Below are positions 4,186 to 60,072 of a stretch of 64,000 nucleotides of DNA, one piece after another. Both the position numbers and the translations under genes were made by a program. Source of the DNA: Candidatus Bathyarchaeia archaeon (lineage in GTDB: Archaea; Thermoproteota; Bathyarchaeia; Bathyarchaeales; Bathycorpusculaceae); assembly GCA_050015395.1 (NCBI GenBank), contig JBEKBM010000003.1, positions 64,001 to 128,000 on the forward strand, written 5' to 3'. Below the pieces are notes generated by a model, which saw only the letters and a program-made list of their open reading frames with translations, was not told the DNA's origin and ran no database searches. Numbering within the stretch: the first letter of the stretch is position 1; the number at the start of each line of letters is the position of its first letter.

Positions 4186-4429
4186 TGAAGTCATTTTTTT
4201 TTAACCAAATTCACCCGTTTTGCCCTGTGAAAACAATAATCCAGACGCTAAATAAAAAAAGCAACTTAAAATAACCCTGACTAAAAGCGTCTACCTATAG
4301 ACCTACCCTGCTATTTGTAGCAAAAAAACAGCACAAAAAGCAACAACCGCAAAAATCGAAACAAAACCCATTCACGTTTCGAAACGTATAAGAGAAAAAC
4401 TCTGTTTCTCAAATAGCGAAGGCTCAACC

Positions 4430-6712
4430 TTGCGAGTAAAACTCAACGTCACCGGTATTGTTCAAGGCGTCGGTTTCCGCCCATTCATCTACCGCTTAGC
4501 CACAAAAAACGGCTTGGCAGGGTACGTTCGCAACAGGGGCGACGCTGGAGTAGAAATCCTCTTGGAAGGAGACGCGCAACGCATCAAGAGTTTTATGCAT
4601 GACTTAACTGAGAAAAAGCCGCCCTTAGCCCAAATTGATGCGGTTAAGTCTACTGAGCTTTCAGGCAAAAATCAACATGACAAATTCACGATTTATAAGA
4701 GTTCTGAGGAAGCGGAGTTTTCAGGCTCAATTATACCGCCGGACATCGCCATATGTAACGAGTGCCTAGCGGAGCTGCGCGACCCAAAAAACCCGCGTTA
4801 CGAATACTTCTTTATCACCTGCACCAATTGCGGGCCACGCTTCACAATCATCGAACGATTGCCCTACGACCGAGAAAACACCACTATGCGGGAGTTTCCC
4901 CTGTGCGGCTTCTGCCAAAAAGAATACAATGACCCAGCAAACAGGCGGTTTCACGCGCAAACCGTGGCTTGTCCAGAATGCGGTCCAAAAGCCTACTTAA
5001 CAACAAGAACTGGCGAACCAATCAAAGCTAAAGACCCAGTACGTGAAGCGGGAAAACTGTTATCCGAAGGCAATGTGCTTGCAATAAAAGGCTATGGCGG
5101 CTTCCACATTGCAGCATCAACCATGCAAGAGAAGCCTCTGGCGGCGCTTCGAACAACGAAGCATAGGCGCGAAAAACCCTTCGCAATCATGACAAAAAGT
5201 CTTGGGGCAGCAAAAAGTTTCGCCGAAGTAAGTTCGAAGGAGCAAGAACTGCTATCTTCCCCTGCACGCCCAATAGTACTGCTAAACAAAAGCGCCAGTT
5301 ACAATCTTTCACCTTTGGTTGCGCCGAACCTGCACAACGTCGGCGTCATGCTGCCCTACACTGGCTTGCACTACATGCTTTTTGACCGTGTTGATGACTT
5401 GGCGTTTGTGATGACAAGCGCCAACCCGCCAAACCAGCCAATCGTGAACGACAACACTGAAGCACTCAAAACATTAGGCAGCACAGTGGATTATTTCCTG
5501 TTTCACAACCGCAACATTGCCCACCGATGCGACGACTCAGTCATGCGCGTTCATGGTAGTCGCCAAGTGTTTCTTAGGCGAAGCCGAGGTTACGCTCCAG
5601 CACCAATCAGGCTCAAAGCTAAATCAAAACGGTGCGTCGTCGGTTTAGGCGGCGAACTAAACAACACAGCCTGCGTATTGCTTGATGACAAAGCCTTCAT
5701 CAGCCAACACATCGGCGACGTAGAAAACGTCGAAACACGAGCTTTCCTTCAAGAAGCCGCAAATCACCTCTACCAGTTAACCAACTGCCATGCCGAAATC
5801 GTGGTTTGCGATTTGCACCCGAAATTCACCACTACTGCTTTAGCCCAAGAGATGGCGGAAGCGGACGGTTCACCGCTGATTCAGGTGCAACATCACCACG
5901 CGCACGCCGCCGCTTTAATGGCAGAGCACAACTTAGAAGAGGCTGTTACTGTTGTTTGCGACGGGTACGGCTACGGCACGGCTGGCGAGGCTTGGGGCGG
6001 CGAAATCTTGTTTTGCACGCGTGAGTCGGCGGAGTTTAAGCGGCTTGGGCATCTGGAACCGCAACCATTGCTTGGTGGAGATGTGGCTAGCCGTTACCCC
6101 TTGCGTGTAGCCGCTGGAATGCTCGCTAAAGCTGGCGTAGAGGTTGAGCCTTGGCTGATGCAGAACAGTGCGCATTTGCCTTTCGGCGAAACTGAAGCCA
6201 ACCTGATTATTGGCCAACTTGCAAAAGGCTTTGGAACGGTTGAAACTACGAGTTGCGGCAGAGTTTTAGACGCGGTTGCTGCCGTTTTAGGCGTATGTTA
6301 CGAGCGCAGTTATGAGGGTGAGCCAGCCATGAAACTGGAATCAGCCGCGGTAAATGGCAAAGATGTTTTGAACCTAAAGCCAATCTTGCATGGAGGCATG
6401 CTGGATACTACGACCATGCTGAGATCAATCTTTGAAAACAAAGAGAACTTATCCATAGGCGATTTAGCTTATTCTGCTCATGCTTACTTGGCAAAAGGTT
6501 TAGCTTCTTTAGCGGTAGAGAAAGCTTTGGTGCTAGGCGTTAGAGACGTTGGCTTTTCGGGTGGCGCTGCCTGCAACCAGATACTTGCTAAAGTCATGCG
6601 TGAGATTGTTGAGGAGGCTGGGCTGTGGTTTCTGGTTCATGAGGCTGTTCCAGCTGGGGACGGGGGAGTTTCGTTCGGTCAGGCAGTTGTAGGTGGATTT
6701 TCACGGTTTTAG
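4430..6712 (+). CDS. hypF: [NiFe]-hydrogenase maturation carbamoyltransferase
   Basis: GIVQGVGFRPF acylphosphatase domain, two CxxC-x18-CxxC zinc fingers, QHHHAH, GDGG. Confidence 0.97.
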   Translation: MRVKLNVTGIVQGVGFRPFIYRLATKNGLAGYVRNRGDAGVEILLEGDAQRIKSFMHDLTEKKPPLAQIDAVKSTELSGKNQHDKFTIYKSSEEAEFSGSIIPPDIAICNECLAELRDPKNPRYEYFFITCTNCGPRFTIIERLPYDRENTTMREFPLCGFCQKEYNDPANRRFHAQTVACPECGPKAYLTTRTGEPIKAKDPVREAGKLLSEGNVLAIKGYGGFHIAASTMQEKPLAALRTTKHRREKPFAIMTKSLGAAKSFAEVSSKEQELLSSPARPIVLLNKSASYNLSPLVAPNLHNVGVMLPYTGLHYMLFDRVDDLAFVMTSANPPNQPIVNDNTEALKTLGSTVDYFLFHNRNIAHRCDDSVMRVHGSRQVFLRRSRGYAPAPIRLKAKSKRCVVGLGGELNNTACVLLDDKAFISQHIGDVENVETRAFLQEAANHLYQLTNCHAEIVVCDLHPKFTTTALAQEMAEADGSPLIQVQHHHAHAAALMAEHNLEEAVTVVCDGYGYGTAGEAWGGEILFCTRESAEFKRLGHLEPQPLLGGDVASRYPLRVAAGMLAKAGVEVEPWLMQNSAHLPFGETEANLIIGQLAKGFGTVETTSCGRVLDAVAAVLGVCYERSYEGEPAMKLESAAVNGKDVLNLKPILHGGMLDTTTMLRSIFENKENLSIGDLAYSAHAYLAKGLASLAVEKALVLGVRDVGFSGGAACNQILAKVMREIVEEAGLWFLVHEAVPAGDGGVSFGQAVVGGFSRF

Positions 6713-42636: not shown

Positions 42637-43075
42637 ATCTTTTTTCTATTTTGTTTCAAACAGCGGCATCGAAAATCACCGAGAGATACACAGAGACAGA
42701 GACGGAGGGGGGTCTACTTCCTAATTCTCTTTTTCAGTACTGCTCTTAAAGGATATTAAATTTCAAAATTTTGTTAGGTACGATTACACTGTTTTCTTTA
42801 TTCTTGATTAAATGTAATCCAATAAGGAAAACCGTGAGCACAAATACCAGTTCCACTCCAATTAAAAGAACCCGTTGAGTTCAAATGCGGCTTGGCTTAT
42901 TTGCACTTGTATGAGTACAAGATTTTTTACCCAGTCTTCCTGCTTTACTGGTGTTTGCAGTTGCCACTAAGCGGTTTACGAGGCAGTATAACGCGTTAAT
43001 CATCTAAAATGTTGCCCGTTTGTTACAAGTATATTTATCTACTTGCATTCATAATAATTTGTGCTGGTTATTTGC

Positions 43076-43285
43076 TTGACAGATACAACAACAATAAGAG
43101 TTTCAAAGAAAACTGCAGAAGCGCTTGAGCACGTTAGGGAAAAGCTAAACGCGGAAAGCCTTGACGAAGCTATTCAATCACTAATCAAAAAACAACGCAA
43201 AACGATTTTGGAACAAGCCTTCGGTGTAGACCGCGCTAGGATTAAGCCTTTTTCGGAGGGAGACCGCGGTGAAGATCGTAATTGA
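43076..43285 (+). CDS. vapB: VapB-type antitoxin
   Basis: TTTIRVSKKT...SLDEAI...DRGEDR; overlaps the PIN gene. Confidence 0.8.
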   Translation: MTDTTTIRVSKKTAEALEHVREKLNAESLDEAIQSLIKKQRKTILEQAFGVDRARIKPFSEGDRGEDRN

Positions 43286-43673
43286 CTCTTATGCTTGGAT
43301 TGAACTCTTCATCGGAAGCGCAAAAGGCCGCAGAGTCAAAGAAATATTTGAAAGTGCTGATGAAGTTTACACACCTGACACCGCTTTAGCAGAGATTGCC
43401 CGCAAATACATCCGAGAAGGCATCGAAGACAAAATAATCAATGTGCGGTTGGAGCAAATAGTTGGCGCTTCAAATATTGCTTACTTGGATGCTAAGCTAG
43501 CGTTGGAATCAGCCAAGTGCTATATGGAGCTTGCAGATAATGCCCGAAAAAATAAGCTGAATGCACCCAGCCTTTTCGATGCAATCGTATTAGCAACAGG
43601 CAGGTCGCTTGAGGCAAAGATTGTGACTGGAGATGAACATTTCAGGCTCTTAGATGAGACAGTGTGGATTTAG
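43269..43673 (+). CDS. vapC: VapC PIN-domain toxin
   Basis: VIDSYAWIE, LAEI, SLFDAIVLA, VTGDEHF. Confidence 0.92.
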   Translation: MKIVIDSYAWIELFIGSAKGRRVKEIFESADEVYTPDTALAEIARKYIREGIEDKIINVRLEQIVGASNIAYLDAKLALESAKCYMELADNARKNKLNAPSLFDAIVLATGRSLEAKIVTGDEHFRLLDETVWI

Positions 43674-43716: not shown

Positions 43717-44724
43717 TTAACGCGTTAAAGCAATCCATAGATGGTCTGAGACTGGTCTTGGCAGCATCTCTGCCGTGTTGTCTTTATGCATGAGTATGCG
43801 TTTGTTGGGGTTCGGGTTGAATTCGCCTATGACGTCAGCGTAAATGTGCTCTAGGCTTAAGGCATCGATTATTTTGTTTGCGGCTTCTGGCTCCGCGGCT
43901 ATGAGCAATGCGCCTGAACTAATCAGCTGCATAGGGTCAATTTCATAGTACCTGCAGATTTTGGCGGTTTCTGGCTCAACCATGATTTTTTCTTCAAAAA
44001 CGCGTATGCCTAATCCTGCGGCGTCTGCCATTTCGTGGATGCCGTTTAGTATTCCGCCTTCTGTTGGGTCATGCATCGCGTGGACTCCGCCTGTTCTGTA
44101 AGCCGTTAAGGCGTCTTTTACAACGCTTATTTGGCTGTAGAAGCGTTTGGCGCTCTCAAGTATGGTCGGAGTAAAAACTTTTTTTAGTTGCTCTTCGCGG
44201 TCGGAAGCTAAAATTGCAGTGCCTTCAATTCCAGCGCTCTTTGTTAAAATTAGCTTGTCGCCTGCTTTAGCGCCTGCTACGGTAACGTATTTGCCTTTTT
44301 CTGTTAAGCCCATGATGCAGCCAACAACAATAGGATTAGCTAAACCCGGAGTTGATTCGCAATGTCCTCCAACAATCGCAATGCCAAGCTCCTTGGCGGC
44401 AGCGTTCATTTGGGTGCTTATGGTTTCAACGATTTTGCTGTCAGCGTTCTCTGGCAAAAGCAAGCATGAGAAGAAAAAGGCAGGCTCAACCCCAAACGTA
44501 GCCACATCATTAGCGTTAATGTTGATGGCTTCCCATCCGATCCGTTCAACTGCACCTGTGATTGGATCCATGGAAACGATGGCGTTTTTGTTTCCAACAT
44601 CTAACACTGCACCATCTACTCCAGCAGCAGGACCCAAAACGACCTCGCTACGGTTCGCTCCCAGGTTTTTGAAGACTACTTCTTTTAGGATGTCTATGGG
44701 GATTTTTCCGGGTGGCAGTTTCAT
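43717..44724 (-). CDS. AIR-synthase/PurM-fold family protein (HypE/ThiL-like, function unknown)
   Basis: DPITG, NANDVAT, VGGHCE, MHDPTEGG; lacks the HypE PRIC end. Confidence 0.85.
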   Translation of the reverse strand: MKLPPGKIPIDILKEVVFKNLGANRSEVVLGPAAGVDGAVLDVGNKNAIVSMDPITGAVERIGWEAININANDVATFGVEPAFFFSCLLLPENADSKIVETISTQMNAAAKELGIAIVGGHCESTPGLANPIVVGCIMGLTEKGKYVTVAGAKAGDKLILTKSAGIEGTAILASDREEQLKKVFTPTILESAKRFYSQISVVKDALTAYRTGGVHAMHDPTEGGILNGIHEMADAAGLGIRVFEEKIMVEPETAKICRYYEIDPMQLISSGALLIAAEPEAANKIIDALSLEHIYADVIGEFNPNPNKRILMHKDNTAEMLPRPVSDHLWIALTR

Positions 44725-44728
44725 GATC

Positions 44729-45301
44729 TTATTCTCTGTTAAATCTAGCTTTTAAGTTGTGCAACACACTCTGCTGTGTGGTTTGATTTCTCCAAGCTTC
44801 TGGGAGTCTCTTGCGAAGTATGGTGGCTAATGCAATACCAACTATTCCGCCTACAGCTATCTGCACTATGTTGGCGGGCACTTCGAACGCTGCTGCCCAC
44901 CCTTCTGATAGCCCGAAGAACTCAGCTATGAAATAACCTGTTACCATTTCTGAGCCTGCTATGACCACAGCTATGACGTCTCTTTTCTTGCTTAGTCTGT
45001 TGGATATTAAGCCAGCTATGAGTCCTTCAGCGCCTTTTATGATAAGGGTGAACGGTGCAAAGTAGGCGTATCCGGTAGCCGCATCAGATATTGCAGACCC
45101 AACGCCTCCTGCGAACCCACCGACGATTGGACCAAAAGTGAAGGAGCTGACGAAGATCATGATGTCGCCGAAGTTTAGGTATCCTCTTGTGGCTGGGATG
45201 TAAATCTGCACGAGGGCGGTTGTGACTGCGACAAGGGCTGCCATGACTCCTGCCTGTGCGATTATGAGTGTGGTTCTTTTTTTGTCAGGTTTGGGTTGCA
45301 T
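44729..45301 (-). CDS. ECF transporter S-component
   Basis: AxxxA motif (VMAALV), GYLNFGD, SAISD, APFTLIIKG; about 6 TMs. Confidence 0.88.
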   Translation of the reverse strand: MQPKPDKKRTTLIIAQAGVMAALVAVTTALVQIYIPATRGYLNFGDIMIFVSSFTFGPIVGGFAGGVGSAISDAATGYAYFAPFTLIIKGAEGLIAGLISNRLSKKRDVIAVVIAGSEMVTGYFIAEFFGLSEGWAAAFEVPANIVQIAVGGIVGIALATILRKRLPEAWRNQTTQQSVLHNLKARFNRE

Positions 45302-45330
45302 CTTTTTTCGCCTTGGTATGGTTGTGACTT

Positions 45331-45352
45331 TAGTATAGTTACAGCTATACTA
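45331..45352. promoter_or_regulatory. Perfect 8-6-8 inverted repeat TAGTATAG-TTACAG-CTATACTA, operator candidate
   Basis: Lies between a TATA-like element (~45353-45361, - strand) and the ECF ATG (45301). Confidence 0.65.
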
Positions 45353-45378
45353 TCAAATAAGCGTTACGGAACCAACAA

Positions 45379-46770
45379 TCACAAAAGCAGCTTTATATCG
45401 TCGAATGCTGCCAGAACCTTCCTTCCACGCTCAGTGATTCGGAAGAATTTCTTGCCGTTCTCCTCATAGCCGACCACCAACCCCTTATCTGACAGCTCGT
45501 TAAGATGTTGATAGACAGCAGCGCGCGTCATTATCTTGCCCAATTGCTTCCATAAATCATAACCGTACGTGTCCTTTTCACTGAGAATTTTAAGAATTTT
45601 CTCTTTGGTACTTACTGCAAGCCCTAAGCCTGCGGTTTTCTGTTTTTTCGTCATCGCCTGCAGAACATCGGTCGCTTTTAGCCCGCTTCCCGTGATGAGG
45701 CAGACTACGCTGCTGTCGCTGGAAATTCGGTCAACTTTCAATTTCTGCAATGCTGCCACGGTGGCTGCGCTGGCTGGTTCAGCGAAGACTCCTTCAAGTT
45801 TAGCGACTTGAAGCTCTGCAGCCAAAATATCCGCGTCTGAGACGGTTAAAGCTAAGCCGTTTGATTCTTGAATCGCTTTAATTGCTAATTCGCTTTGTAA
45901 TGGCTCGCCAACAAGAATGGCTAAGGCGCGTGTGGATGGGTTGCAGGATTTTGAAGATGATTGTTCTGTCAGTTCGTTGACTATTGGGGCGCAGCCTTCT
46001 GTCTGGACTCCTGCCATCCGCGGTAACGAGCGGGTTAGCCCTAGTTGTTTGAGTTCTTTGAAGCCTTTCCAAAGAGAATAGATGGTCCCGCCGCTTCCCA
46101 TCGAAACTATAACCCAGTCTGGAACCGCAAACTGTTCATTAATTTCGAACGAAATAGTTTTTTGAGCTTCAACAACCAACGGGTTGAGTTCGGCGGTGGC
46201 TTGGTACCAGCCTGTTTCCTTGGCTAAGGCAGAAGCTTTGCGGATTGAGTCATCCACAATGTCGCCTGATTCCTCGATGACGGCGTCGTAAGCAATCATC
46301 TGCGCCAGTTTTCCAACATCGACAACTTTGGGAACCAAGACGTGGCATATCAACCCTGCTTTTGCGCTGTAGGCAGCTAAAGAAGCGCCCATGTTCCCGT
46401 TAGTGGCGCATACTATTGCCTCAAAGCCTTGGTCAATCGCGTTTGATGTCAAGAAAGCTGCTGCGCGATCTCTGTAAGAGTTTGTGGGGTTGCGGGTTTC
46501 ATCCTTCAAATAGAGATCTTTCAATCCGACGGCTTTAGCAAGCCTTTCAGCCTTATGCAATGGTGTTCCGCCCTCTCCCAAACTGATCATGTGCTTAACT
46601 GGCGGAAGCATCTCTCTGTATCTCCAGAATCCTTGAGTTCCTGAAAGCTTCAATTTTTCACCTTCAGGTAAGTCAGCTATAAATTCGAGTGTACCGCCGC
46701 ATTTTTCACATTTACTTCTCAACGGGTAAACTGGAAACTCTGTGCCGCAGCGAATGCATCGAAGCATCAA
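45379..46770 (-). CDS. Threonine-synthase-like protein (PLP Lys to Arg) fused to a C-terminal PadR-like wHTH
   Basis: SLGEGGTPL, NPTNSYRDR (canonical NPTxSFKDR), EPASA, TGSGLK; tail ILKILSEKDTYGYDLWK...VYQHLNELSDKGLV...FFRITERG. Confidence 0.88.
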   Translation of the reverse strand: MMLRCIRCGTEFPVYPLRSKCEKCGGTLEFIADLPEGEKLKLSGTQGFWRYREMLPPVKHMISLGEGGTPLHKAERLAKAVGLKDLYLKDETRNPTNSYRDRAAAFLTSNAIDQGFEAIVCATNGNMGASLAAYSAKAGLICHVLVPKVVDVGKLAQMIAYDAVIEESGDIVDDSIRKASALAKETGWYQATAELNPLVVEAQKTISFEINEQFAVPDWVIVSMGSGGTIYSLWKGFKELKQLGLTRSLPRMAGVQTEGCAPIVNELTEQSSSKSCNPSTRALAILVGEPLQSELAIKAIQESNGLALTVSDADILAAELQVAKLEGVFAEPASAATVAALQKLKVDRISSDSSVVCLITGSGLKATDVLQAMTKKQKTAGLGLAVSTKEKILKILSEKDTYGYDLWKQLGKIMTRAAVYQHLNELSDKGLVVGYEENGKKFFRITERGRKVLAAFDDIKLLL

Positions 46771-46918: not shown

Positions 46919-47296
46919 ATGAGCGTAAGAGAAGACCCAATAAAAATGCATAAAGAAGCTAATTCGCTGATGGAAAACGGCAAATACGTTGAAGCAAGAG
47001 ACATTTTTGTAAAAACAGCTGAACTTTACTATAAAGGGCAGAACTATTTCGGGTCAGCAGAAATGTACTATAAGGCTGGCGAATGCGCCTTTGCCCTCAA
47101 AGAATATGAGAAAGGCGTGGAATTTTTTATGAAGTCCGCTGATATCTCGTTTAATAAGGGATTCGACAGGTACGGCGTTAGCGCGCTTGATTATGCACGA
47201 GACTGCCAAAAAGCCTTAGGCAACACAAAGGAAGTTGAAGAGCTAAGCAAGAAAATTAAAGAAGTCAAAGAAAAACTCGAAAGCTCTGGTTTCTGA
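46919..47296 (+). CDS. TPR/SNAP-like helical repeat protein
   Basis: Repeated A-x-x-Y/F helices (AELYYK, AEMYYKAGECA). Confidence 0.7.
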   Translation: MSVREDPIKMHKEANSLMENGKYVEARDIFVKTAELYYKGQNYFGSAEMYYKAGECAFALKEYEKGVEFFMKSADISFNKGFDRYGVSALDYARDCQKALGNTKEVEELSKKIKEVKEKLESSGF

Positions 47297-56931: not shown

Positions 56932-57705
56932 ATGCCCAGATTTAGAGCCTTTGATGTTGCCATCATTGCCTTATGTGCGGCCGTGTATGCAGTTATTGGT
57001 TACCTTACAAGTTTCGGTTTAAGCTTTGGCGGAGTTGCTTTTTGGCCTGCGGCATTTGTGCCTGCTATTTTCGCTGTTTTGTTTGGACCTTGGGAAGGCG
57101 GCATTGGAGCTGCGATCGGAATATTCATCCGAGACATTATAGTTATTGGACAGCCTTTACTGAGTTTAACCGTGGGAGTTCCTGCAAATTTTGTGGCGTT
57201 TTTCCTGATAGGCTATTTTGCGCACACAAAGCTTGACAGAAAGAAAACTTTGCTCAGCTTAATCATCGGTATTGGGGTTATTCTTGCGGGCCTTTTGTTG
57301 CCAACCGTGTTTCTTTCAAGTTTATCTGCGGGTTATACCGGATTGTCAACCGAAACCGTCGTTATCCTTTTCAGTGTCGTCATGGCGGTATCCTTAATTC
57401 TGTTTGTAGCTATCGCAAAATATTGGAAGGAATTCAGAAGTTTTGGGGTAGGCTCAATTACTGGAATGGCGGTCGGTGCTATGATAATAGCATTTGGGGT
57501 TTGGGCGTATAGTCAACTGCTCTATGCGCCACATGGGTATTTTACAGCGCCGTTATCAGCGTCTTTGGCGTCGCTTGTCTTCGTTTGGACGTTCGTAACT
57601 GAAATACCCTTTGTGCTTCTGGTCTCGCCTCCCGTTATAAAAGCGTGTCAAGCCGCATTCCCATTTATTAGACAACGCCAAGAAACCAAAGAGAAGGCGA
57701 AATAA
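56932..57705 (+). CDS. ECF-type S-component-like membrane protein (possible pantothenate/pantoate uptake)
   Basis: CAAVYA, AVLFGPWEGGIGAAIG; first gene of the pantoate kinase-PPAT operon. Confidence 0.75.
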   Translation: MPRFRAFDVAIIALCAAVYAVIGYLTSFGLSFGGVAFWPAAFVPAIFAVLFGPWEGGIGAAIGIFIRDIIVIGQPLLSLTVGVPANFVAFFLIGYFAHTKLDRKKTLLSLIIGIGVILAGLLLPTVFLSSLSAGYTGLSTETVVILFSVVMAVSLILFVAIAKYWKEFRSFGVGSITGMAVGAMIIAFGVWAYSQLLYAPHGYFTAPLSASLASLVFVWTFVTEIPFVLLVSPPVIKACQAAFPFIRQRQETKEKAK

Positions 57706-59142: not shown

Positions 59143-60072
59143 CTATAATATTTCTCCTACAACATTAATTGGTTTACTAATTAACGACGTTAAATCCTCA
59201 AGGTTCTCTTTGCCCACAGTTACCAGAACAACCGTGGCTGGACCAGCAGACTTGTTCAAATCCAACCCTTTCACCTCAGCAAGCTTCAATTGCCTACCAA
59301 CGCCATACGCCATCATCCTAGCCGCATCTGCAATGCCGAAAGTGCCTACAGCTACAATGTCATGGACATATTTTTTCTGAGAAAGTTGAGTTACATTTTT
59401 GAGGTCAGCAATTTCTCCTTTAGCTTCTGCCAAAATCACTTCATCACCAACCTTAGGCTTGCCAACGGCAACTATTAAGTCGCCAGGGCTTGTTTTTCCA
59501 AGCCTTAACTCGTCTTCGTTTGCAAAACCAATTACCGTTAAGCCAGCGCCAGTTTGCACTGTTTCAAAGTTGTCCTCCGTATTTTCCATGATTACCTGGT
59601 TTGGGTCAAGACCGAGGGTTCTGGCTTCTCGTCGAATGCCTTCTAATATCTCGTTGCCTGTTGGTTCCTTCTCTACGCCTAACGTGACTGATAAGAGAAG
59701 AGGAAACGCGCCTGTCGCTATCACATCCATTAAGGCAACCCTTGCCAGAAACTTTCCCAACACACGCCCATCAACTTTGACTTTATCCATTATTTTTGGA
59801 CCAACCGCTCCGGACGAGGTTGAACCTGCCACTATAGCGTGGCCTGTGGGTACTTTCAGGATTGAAACGTCTCCTCTTCGTGTATAAGTTATCTGTGCAG
59901 GCTTCACTTGAAAAACTATGGGACGCAACATTGTGCCAACGTTCTCTACAAGATGCAAGTAAACAGTTAATGCTTGGCGCATGACCTCTGATCGGCTGAG
60001 ACTGTGCTTTTTAGCCAGTTTATCTATGTCTGAAACAACTTTATCGGGTAAGCGAACATTTACGATATCCAT
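59143..60072 (-). CDS. RHH domain fused to an alpha-ribazole kinase (CblS)-like PurM-fold domain
   Basis: VNVRLPD...SRSEVMRQAL; GPKxxD, ARVALMDVIATGA, TEDNFETVQTG, KSAGPAT. Confidence 0.8.
   Translation of the reverse strand: MDIVNVRLPDKVVSDIDKLAKKHSLSRSEVMRQALTVYLHLVENVGTMLRPIVFQVKPAQITYTRRGDVSILKVPTGHAIVAGSTSSGAVGPKIMDKVKVDGRVLGKFLARVALMDVIATGAFPLLLSVTLGVEKEPTGNEILEGIRREARTLGLDPNQVIMENTEDNFETVQTGAGLTVIGFANEDELRLGKTSPGDLIVAVGKPKVGDEVILAEAKGEIADLKNVTQLSQKKYVHDIVAVGTFGIADAARMMAYGVGRQLKLAEVKGLDLNKSAGPATVVLVTVGKENLEDLTSLISKPINVVGEIL

Follow-up and report, generated by a model that had tools for sequence, protein, structure and literature searches.

Why should an archaeon with a canonical threonine synthase also encode a second ThrC-like protein, one which has an arginine in place of the catalytic lysine, a DNA-binding domain at its C-terminus and the gene for a putative vitamin importer directly downstream? 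The question is raised by three genes in a row on the minus strand of a 64,000 nucleotide stretch of contig JBEKBM010000003.1 from a Candidatus Bathyarchaeia archaeon (GCA_050015395.1, positions 64,001 to 128,000; this whole stretch is called the window here, and coordinates without a contig or locus handle refer to it). The row is composed of a regulator gene, a 77 nt spacer, a gene for the S-component of an energy-coupling factor (ECF) transporter and a gene for a PurM-fold protein. An earlier note on this DNA, made from the letters alone, had proposed a sensor of B6 or of a phospho-metabolite that represses an operon for vitamin uptake and a salvage kinase. Our analysis favours the B6 option: the 463 aa protein is most likely not a threonine synthase but a DNA-binding vitamin B6 sensor, and its family is probably the archaeal functional analogue of bacterial PdxR, responding to B6 and controlling its uptake together with, in some relatives, the synthesis genes pdxS and pdxT. 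The evidence which carries this reading is an operator common to S-component and pdxS-pdxT promoters, an importer resembling HmpT/PdxU2, a genome in which neither de novo B6 genes nor known B6 kinases were found, and a loss of the lysine which tracks the fusion. The B6 assignment in particular follows from the regulon, since PdxU-type S-components and pdxS-pdxT match the content of the bacterial PdxR regulon.

The regulator gene (45379..46770, minus strand) starts with TTG and encodes 463 aa, the 462 aa database form beginning at an ATG one codon further on (46767). Its translation, which contains ETRNPTNSYRDRAAAF, opens with a zinc-ribbon of four cysteines (C5, C8, C21 and C24; 46699..46758, minus strand) as in canonical archaeal-type ThrC, followed by a fold-type II pyridoxal 5'-phosphate (PLP) domain (PALP, residues 62-361; 45688..46587, minus strand; 248 bits with Pfam); residues 50-370 match the ThrC structure 2ZSJ with an E-value of 1.6e-62. 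HMMER alignments to two threonine synthase structures, 2ZSJ and 2D1F, put Arg100 (codon AGA; 46471..46473, minus strand) of the motif NPTNSYRDR on the PLP Schiff-base lysine of NPTGSFKDRG, and the MGSGGT loop (residues 224-229; 46084..46101, minus strand), which lies within VSMGSGGTIY, on the glycine-rich loop GNAGN at the PLP-phosphate-binding position. No solved chain covered the region past residue ~370 in the search against solved structures. This part of the protein holds a flexible linker (residues 375-385; 45616..45648, minus strand) and a PadR-type winged helix-turn-helix (wHTH; residues 392-454; 45409..45597, minus strand) which PF03551 recognises with 43.8 bits (cut-off 27) and which is followed by a C-terminal helix. 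The earlier note had thus read the arginine, the retained phosphate loop and the fused wHTH correctly. An AlphaFold2 model built with 63 sequences (mean predicted local distance difference test, pLDDT, of 90.2) consists of a ThrC-like body, a disordered linker, the only part with a pLDDT below 50, and a wHTH with helices at residues 383-398, 403-409 and 416-428, a two-stranded wing at 432-445 and the C-terminal helix at 447-462.

Annotation pipelines see an enzyme in this protein. It scores 209.4 against TIGR00260 (thrC; cut-off 167.1) and 409.8 against NF004170 (cut-off 421), a 442-position NCBIfam model called 'threonine synthase' which spans the wHTH, and near-identical proteins in public databases carry that name. 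The separate canonical thrC which the earlier note had in mind is present in the same genome, on contig C14; it has NPTGSFKDR, lacks the wHTH and reaches 371.7 bits with TIGR00260.

The distribution of the lysine was followed by aligning to the window protein the best 150 matches among 1.84 billion cluster representatives. Among these matches lysine is absent from 72 of the 76 representatives in which both the wHTH and the lysine region are present, the remaining four being P0122, P0124 and two 620 aa proteins of different architecture, and it is found in 68 of 72 unfused representatives, fragments of Arg-type proteins accounting for three of the four exceptions. The replacing residue varies among the 72 fused proteins (L in 18, R and I in 16 each, V in six, T in five, M in four, F in two, and S, Y, A, N and H in one each). 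The earlier note had asked whether the K-to-R exchange and the fusion are conserved; it is loss of the lysine that goes with the fusion, arginine being one of several replacing residues. Comparison of 49 canonical ThrC sequences with 125 fused ones (11 with lysine, 31 with arginine and 83 with other residues) gave 46 columns which are at least 88% conserved in canonical ThrC, and only the lysine column is systematically replaced in the fused forms. The zinc-ribbon cysteine columns are kept in canonical and fused forms alike, and G225 and G227 in all groups compared. Since the pocket columns are retained while the lysine is replaced, the pocket appears to be under selection and Schiff-base formation to be selected against.

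A FastTree phylogeny calculated with the lysine column removed places all fused forms in a single clade (126 rows, SH support 99). This comprises an Arg clade (45 rows, SH 99; 31 with R, 11 with K and one each with F, Y and S) and a hydrophobic clade (81 rows, SH 99; L, I, M, V, T and N). The 11 Lys-bearing loci form one group nested within the Arg clade, and the whole tree needs a minimum of three changes between lysine and other residues. On the simplest reading, the nested group is likely to be an Arg-to-Lys reversion, which is likely and not settled because the tree is a quick one and because long Lys-bearing representatives were left out: the tree and column sets exclude Lys representatives of more than 435 aa (P0122, P0124, P0220, P0224 and others) as well as those failing the motif pattern, and hold the Lys-bearing fusions as these 11 loci. 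Orthologs which retain the lysine, seen by the earlier note as a threat to its proposal, do exist in this one sub-clade, as an apparent reversion. To judge from record titles, the fused family occurs in Bathyarchaeia, Thorarchaeota, Promethearchaeati, Nitrososphaerota, Ca. Terraquivivens, Methanomethylicota and other Thermoproteota.

The putative operator is a 22 bp palindrome of 8-6-8 layout (45331..45352) which starts 27 nt after the regulator stop codon and ends 29 nt upstream of the S-component ATG. Its halves, TAGTATAG (45331-45338) and CTATACTA (45345-45352), are 100% complementary across a 6 nt spacer, as the earlier note had stated in placing a perfect inverted repeat in the S-component promoter, and its 5' end is abutted by a TATA-like element, TTATTTGA (45353..45360, minus strand), the presumed promoter. 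With up to three mismatches allowed the palindrome is the sole match in the window (0.10 expected from shuffles). The site is conserved, a point which the earlier note had left for comparison with other genomes. Nineteen sites upstream of S-component genes in 14 loci of the Arg/Lys group gave the consensus TAGTATAGTTATAACTATACTA with the near-invariant cores TAG..TTnnAA..CTA. Certain Lys-group loci have two sites ~27-30 nt apart; it is the proximal site whose 5' side is abutted by a TATA-like A/T block, and in most loci this site ends 1-30 nt before the predicted start. A position weight matrix (PWM) trained solely on S-component-promoter sites returned the window site as the top match in the 2.59 Mb genome (28.7 bits, followed by one match of 19.9 bits and others of at most 16.2).

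The link to B6 synthesis comes from two genomes, G056 and G082, in which an Arg-type regulator is accompanied by its S-component while pdxS-pdxT lies on a separate contig. When 6.5-7 kb of each pdx locus was scanned with the same PWM, the top match lay 13 nt upstream of pdxS in G056 (22.1 bits, the next-best 6.1) and 17 nt upstream of pdxS in G082 (29.6 bits, the next-best 4.1). The palindrome of the hydrophobic clade is a different one, TATAWRAG-N6-CYYWTATA, which fits all seven of the spacers examined, four of them at S-component genes and three at pdxS. We also looked for remote operators in 10 genomes whose regulator has no adjacent target. Three of these (G002, G010 and G034) each have a single exact match genome-wide, 30-50 nt upstream of an S-component gene which is convergent with a PurM-fold gene, and in G030 and G065 all four matches to the Arg/Lys-type pattern directly precede S-component-like genes. 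The idea that Arg-clade regulators also control themselves was considered and rejected, no PWM match of at least 10 bits being present upstream of the regulator gene in its own genome.

The surroundings of the regulator were compared in 70 distinct loci, with flanks searched by tblastn (L102 was dropped for want of an intact fusion ORF, and L083 duplicates L065). A homologous S-component gene is adjacent in 42 of the 70: in 14 of 17 Arg-clade loci, downstream and on the same strand, in seven of 11 loci of the Lys sub-clade, and in 21 of 42 hydrophobic-clade loci, where it is divergent. Adjacent pdxS-pdxT genes are confined to the hydrophobic clade, in which five loci have them in divergent orientation with unambiguous matches (SOR_SNZ 334 bits, SNO 173 bits); the Arg clade and the Lys sub-clade have none. 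A PurM-fold gene lies within 3.2 kb of the regulator in 14 of the 70 loci, usually beside the S-component gene, and is the only one of the target genes found in the flank of L108. Fusions of S-component and PurM-fold protein suggested by ORFs of 486 and 495 aa in L098 and L100 were dismissed as an artefact of calling the longest ORF: the additional 150-160 N-terminal residues have neither transmembrane segments nor a Pfam match, and a separate S-component gene overlaps them in another frame. It should also be noted that in five Nitrososphaerota loci (L098, L100, L103, L104 and L110) a gene for a HAD-family hydrolase follows the regulator closely, in convergent orientation. PLP phosphatases are among the HAD enzymes, but the arrangement could reflect no more than conserved gene order.

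The gene content of the genome fits a module for uptake. The S-component (190 aa; 44729..45301, minus strand) belongs to the PdxU/PdxU2(HmpT) family, its score with PF07155 being 121.8 bits against a cut-off of 26.7, in agreement with the ECF S-component called in the earlier note. Its closest solved relative is chain S of 4HZU (HmpT/PdxU2; E-value 2.8e-15, compared with 0.0018 for RibU), and three of six conserved HmpT residues are kept (Y120, N140 and Q143). Pyridoxamine is the compound reported as extracted from the HmpT protein in PMC4860826, and PdxU and PdxU2 are listed among PF07155 members in PMC9997740. The S-component is accordingly predicted, from its sequence relationships, to import B6 vitamers. 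For the remainder of the ECF module only the EcfT side was searched, and three EcfT/CbiQ matches (PF02361) above the cut-off lie elsewhere in the genome. This genome (2.59 Mb, 98.9% complete) yielded no PdxS or PdxT by tblastn, or with PF01680 in the case of PdxS, no PdxJ, and no kinase of the PdxK/PdxY/ThiD2 type above the cut-off of PF08543; the organism is apparently auxotrophic for B6. In the class as a whole such auxotrophy would seem to be usual: of 121 Bathyarchaeia genomes searched, PdxS was above the cut-off in 23, 13 of them from one family (f10), and absent from 98. Among 30 genomes with Arg/Lys-type fusions only G056 and G082 have PdxS, and in all three genomes with PdxS and a hydrophobic-type regulator the two loci are adjacent.

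The scheme which we favour starts from what was computed, that is the architecture, the loss of the lysine, the conserved operator, its presence in promoters of both S-component genes and pdxST, and the set of genes in this genome; from these we infer that PLP is the ligand, that the regulator represses, that it binds as a dimer and that the PurM-fold enzyme is a kinase. A dimeric ThrC-like domain of fold-type II, with its cofactor and substrate pocket intact and the Schiff base abolished by the Lys to Arg exchange, would read the pool of free PLP or B6 reversibly and would set two C-terminal PadR wHTH domains onto the 22 bp palindrome. This palindrome abuts the putative TATA box and would span the region from there to the start of the next gene, and since it occupies the archaeal TATA-to-start region, a protein bound to it should block initiation. 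When B6 is sufficient the liganded protein would thus sit on the operator and transcription of the two-gene operon would be prevented from starting; when the operon is expressed, the PdxU2/HmpT-like S-component would import B6 vitamers and the PurM-fold ATP-dependent enzyme may trap them through phosphorylation. In relatives which make B6 the same regulator family would control pdxS-pdxT, while in the present genome, as an apparent auxotroph, the module would control uptake and salvage only. A broader version is rather doubtful on the present comparisons. It would be a B6 system throughout the TACK and Asgard archaea, made of components with no earlier link to B6: a Lys-less ThrC pseudoenzyme which senses free PLP non-covalently as the counterpart of PdxR, and the PurM-fold protein as the alternative B6-vitamer kinase, with its paralog beside ThiT as a thiamine-salvage kinase.

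The third gene of the row (335 aa; 43717..44724, minus strand) begins 4 nt past the S-component gene and encodes a PurM-superfamily protein with matches to AIRS (PF00586, 60.2 bits) and AIRS_C (PF02769, 86.2 bits), which bears out the AIR-synthase fold assigned in the earlier note. Identification as HypE (109, cut-off 251.6), ThiL (97, cut-off 184) or SelD (75, cut-off 125) was rejected; true ThiL (258.9 bits), HypE and SelD are each encoded elsewhere in the genome. A Pfam scan detected no ribokinase-like Phos_pyr_kin domain (PF08543) in the protein, and its relatives are named only 'AIR synthase family protein', 'hydrogenase maturation factor' or 'HypE' in the databases. The gene occupies the slot which pdxK holds in PdxR regulons. 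Its closest paralog in the genome (33% identity; C17:59040-60540, L075:1471-3040) directly follows a ThiT gene (TIGR02357, 147 bits, cut-off 108). The same pairing with ThiT is found in 15 of 20 paralog loci from other genomes (L184-L203), including all 13 whose identity to the paralog of this genome is 47% or more, and no PF08543 match above 61 bits was present in those 20 genomes or in our own; the paralog is a candidate kinase for thiamine salvage, encoded next to the importer it would serve.

A further pairing of this kind lies in the window itself, where another S-component gene (56932-57705, plus strand; PF12822 32.8 bits, PF07155 28.5 bits) stands before a GHMP kinase gene, whose nearest match is archaeal pantoate kinase (121 bits, well short of the cut-off), and a PPAT/CoaD gene (186 bits, cut-off 104); the set, which extends to 59131, is likely to be an operon for uptake and salvage of coenzyme A (CoA) precursors. 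Together with the ThiT-paralog pair it indicates a genome which repeatedly couples an ECF importer gene to a phosphorylating enzyme. In G007, which has no fused regulator, an ortholog of the PurM-fold gene immediately precedes pdxS in the same orientation (C63:2377-4236, minus strand), and this gene order is an independent link of the PurM-fold enzyme to B6. That the enzyme is the missing B6-vitamer kinase is nonetheless only a tentative proposal, somewhat less probable than its opposite. We know of no hydroxyl kinase in the PurM superfamily, and the neighbours of unlinked copies of the gene included no conserved partner. The comparison of PdxK and PurM-fold genes for phyletic complementarity was uninformative, because the strong PF08543 matches are ThiD-type proteins of ~450 aa (64 rows in 63 genomes of the class) which coexist with the PurM-fold gene. 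Of the vitamin uptake and salvage-kinase operon proposed in the earlier note, the uptake part is well matched by the results and the salvage-kinase part only weakly so, the operator being found at none of the 20 unlinked copies.

Several observations weigh against the proposed B6 regulator. The 11 loci of the Lys sub-clade have the same operator and the same targets as the Arg forms, so that loss of the lysine is not required for the regulatory role. Neither target is adjacent in 16 of the 42 hydrophobic-clade loci, although four of these have less than 300 nt of upstream flank, and no remote operator was detected, with up to one mismatch allowed, in five of the 10 genomes searched for it (G004, G103, G020, G070 and G096). 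The second-best site of the genome (19.9 bits; C12:41423-41444, L072 ~4424-4445) precedes an unrelated ORF of 363 aa, which begins 10 nt downstream near an exosortase (EpsH) gene; it may be a chance match or an additional target, and we leave it as a possible chance match since the ORF has no link to B6. In the S-component the other three of the six HmpT residues are changed (E41 to D, H84 to K and Q87 to E). Of the 121 genomes of the class, 109 have the PurM-fold gene, which was rejected as a universal member of the regulon, given that in the 20 genomes with unlinked copies no PWM score within ~4.5 kb exceeded 10 bits. The ligand, the binding to DNA and the sign of regulation are themselves deduced from sequence. 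Finally, the whole substrate pocket of ThrC is kept, and the ligand could therefore be an adduct of PLP with an amino acid or a metabolite of the threonine pathway.

This last point leads to the alternative which survives best, a sensor of O-phosphohomoserine, threonine or a PLP-amino-acid external aldimine which would couple amino-acid status to B6 supply. Besides the retention of every canonical ThrC pocket column except the lysine, a canonical thrC gene stands beside or near the regulator in five Arg-clade loci (L035, L037, L038, L040 and L049), and PLP enzymes deprived of their lysine can hold external aldimines. Origin by tandem duplication would, however, equally leave a thrC gene nearby, no operator was found at these neighbouring thrC genes, and every target identified is a B6 gene, either a PdxU2-like S-component or pdxST; we consider this alternative improbable, with some small chance of being right. 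A role of the module in thiamine salvage, with import of hydroxymethylpyrimidine (HMP) by the S-component and a ThiL-like kinase as the PurM-fold enzyme, has a slight chance. HmpT was first predicted to be a carrier of HMP, as related in PMC4860826, which gives pyridoxamine as the compound extracted from the protein. The score of 97 bits with the ThiL model and a genome without a ThiD-type kinase above the PF08543 cut-off are in keeping with such a role, but the genome has a true ThiL of its own as well as a distinct ThiT accompanied by another PurM-fold protein, the paralog described above, and the same operator precedes pdxS-pdxT genes, whose identity is secure. That the protein is a bifunctional trigger enzyme which still makes threonine and binds DNA as well is very improbable: the TIGR00260 score above the cut-off, the conserved pocket and the Lys-bearing sub-clade are what might be expected of it, but arginine cannot form the internal aldimine, 72 of the 76 fused representatives have one of 12 different residues instead of lysine, and a canonical Lys-bearing thrC is encoded in the same genome. 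There is next to no chance that the palindrome is merely an RNA hairpin, a terminator of the upstream gene or a fortuitous AT-rich repeat, as its position 27 nt after the regulator stop codon and the frequency of short repeats in AT-rich spacers might suggest, because across 14 loci it is kept in sequence and not in pairing alone, it recurs before pdxS on other contigs and before S-component genes far from the regulator, and it is the single best PWM match in 2.59 Mb, with 0.10 matches per window expected at three mismatches.

Some neighbouring genes deserve a brief mention. Divergently upstream of the regulator lies a gene for a 125 aa tetratricopeptide repeat (TPR) protein (46919-47296, plus strand) which is conserved in the closest relatives (L044 and L048). 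Just downstream of the S-component/PurM-fold operon, two small overlapping ORFs of 74 and 134 aa (43061-43673, plus strand) look, from their translations alone, like a toxin-antitoxin pair of the VapB/VapC (PIN) type. Convergent with the likely CoA-salvage operon is an ORF of 309 aa (59143-60072, minus strand) with an N-terminal RHH_1 domain (31.7 bits) and an AIRS N-domain (29 bits), which may be another enzyme-derived regulator, in this case with a PurM-like sensor.

No description of a ThrC-like/PadR regulator or of any archaeal B6 regulator was found in the literature searched, supplements lying outside the search. According to a 2023 survey (PMC9997740), PdxR and PdxR2 are the only known B6 regulators, three B6 transporters are known and alternative B6 kinases are still to be found. 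If the reading of the family as a B6 regulator is right, it would fill the regulator gap in several archaeal phyla, provide an operator motif ready for regulon prediction, identify a group of S-components as importers of B6 and put forward a candidate for the missing B6 kinase; if the pan-archaeal version were true as well, it would add a new class of vitamin kinase paired with ECF importers. The systematic misannotation of the family as 'threonine synthase', up to an NCBIfam model of its own which extends over the wHTH, can distort metabolic reconstructions. With 98 of the 121 Bathyarchaeia genomes searched lacking PdxS, auxotrophy for B6 and the way in which it is regulated are relevant to the ecology of an abundant sediment lineage.

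Comparison with known systems places each part of the module in context. The regulator resembles ThrC (PDB 2ZSJ, 2D1F and 1UIM) in fold, zinc-ribbon N-terminus and pocket residues, and differs from it in having arginine for the Schiff-base lysine and an added linker and wHTH. The S-component shares PF07155 with HmpT/PdxU2 of Lactobacillus brevis (4HZU chain S), its best solved relative, but the relationship is distant and the protein described here is archaeal and under a different regulator. The PurM-fold protein has the AIRS and AIRS_C fold of ThiL, HypE and SelD, yet remains below all three cut-offs. A transporter gene together with a kinase gene is also what the account of cblT-cblS in PMC6167548 describes. 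The likeness is one of gene order, with the enzyme gene directly after that of the vitamin importer. Among archaeal regulators, ThiR combines a ThiN-like domain with a DNA-binding domain. Both ThiR and RbkR, a riboflavin kinase with a wHTH, likewise reuse an enzyme domain of a vitamin pathway as the sensor on a DNA-binding domain and control genes for synthesis and transport; they differ from the present family in the vitamin, in the fold of the sensor and in the family of the DNA-binding domain. RbkR, moreover, is presented in PMC5397151 as a bifunctional kinase and regulator, whereas the sensor considered here lacks the catalytic residue. The closest functional parallel is bacterial PdxR, whose regulons comprise pdxST, pdxK and pdxU according to the overview in PMC5320631, which also gives MocR regulators as absent from Archaea. 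PdxR, a MocR/GntR protein, is similar in having a sensor derived from a PLP enzyme fused to a wHTH, and in a regulon which, as outlined there, covers PLP synthesis, salvage and PdxU. The layout of MocR/PdxR, with an N-terminal GntR wHTH and an aminotransferase-like domain of fold-type I, was not found in the window protein, which has a PALP domain of fold-type II and a C-terminal PadR domain. PdxR keeps its lysine, whereas the ThrC-like sensor is without it. PdxR and the ThrC-PadR family are analogous and not homologous.

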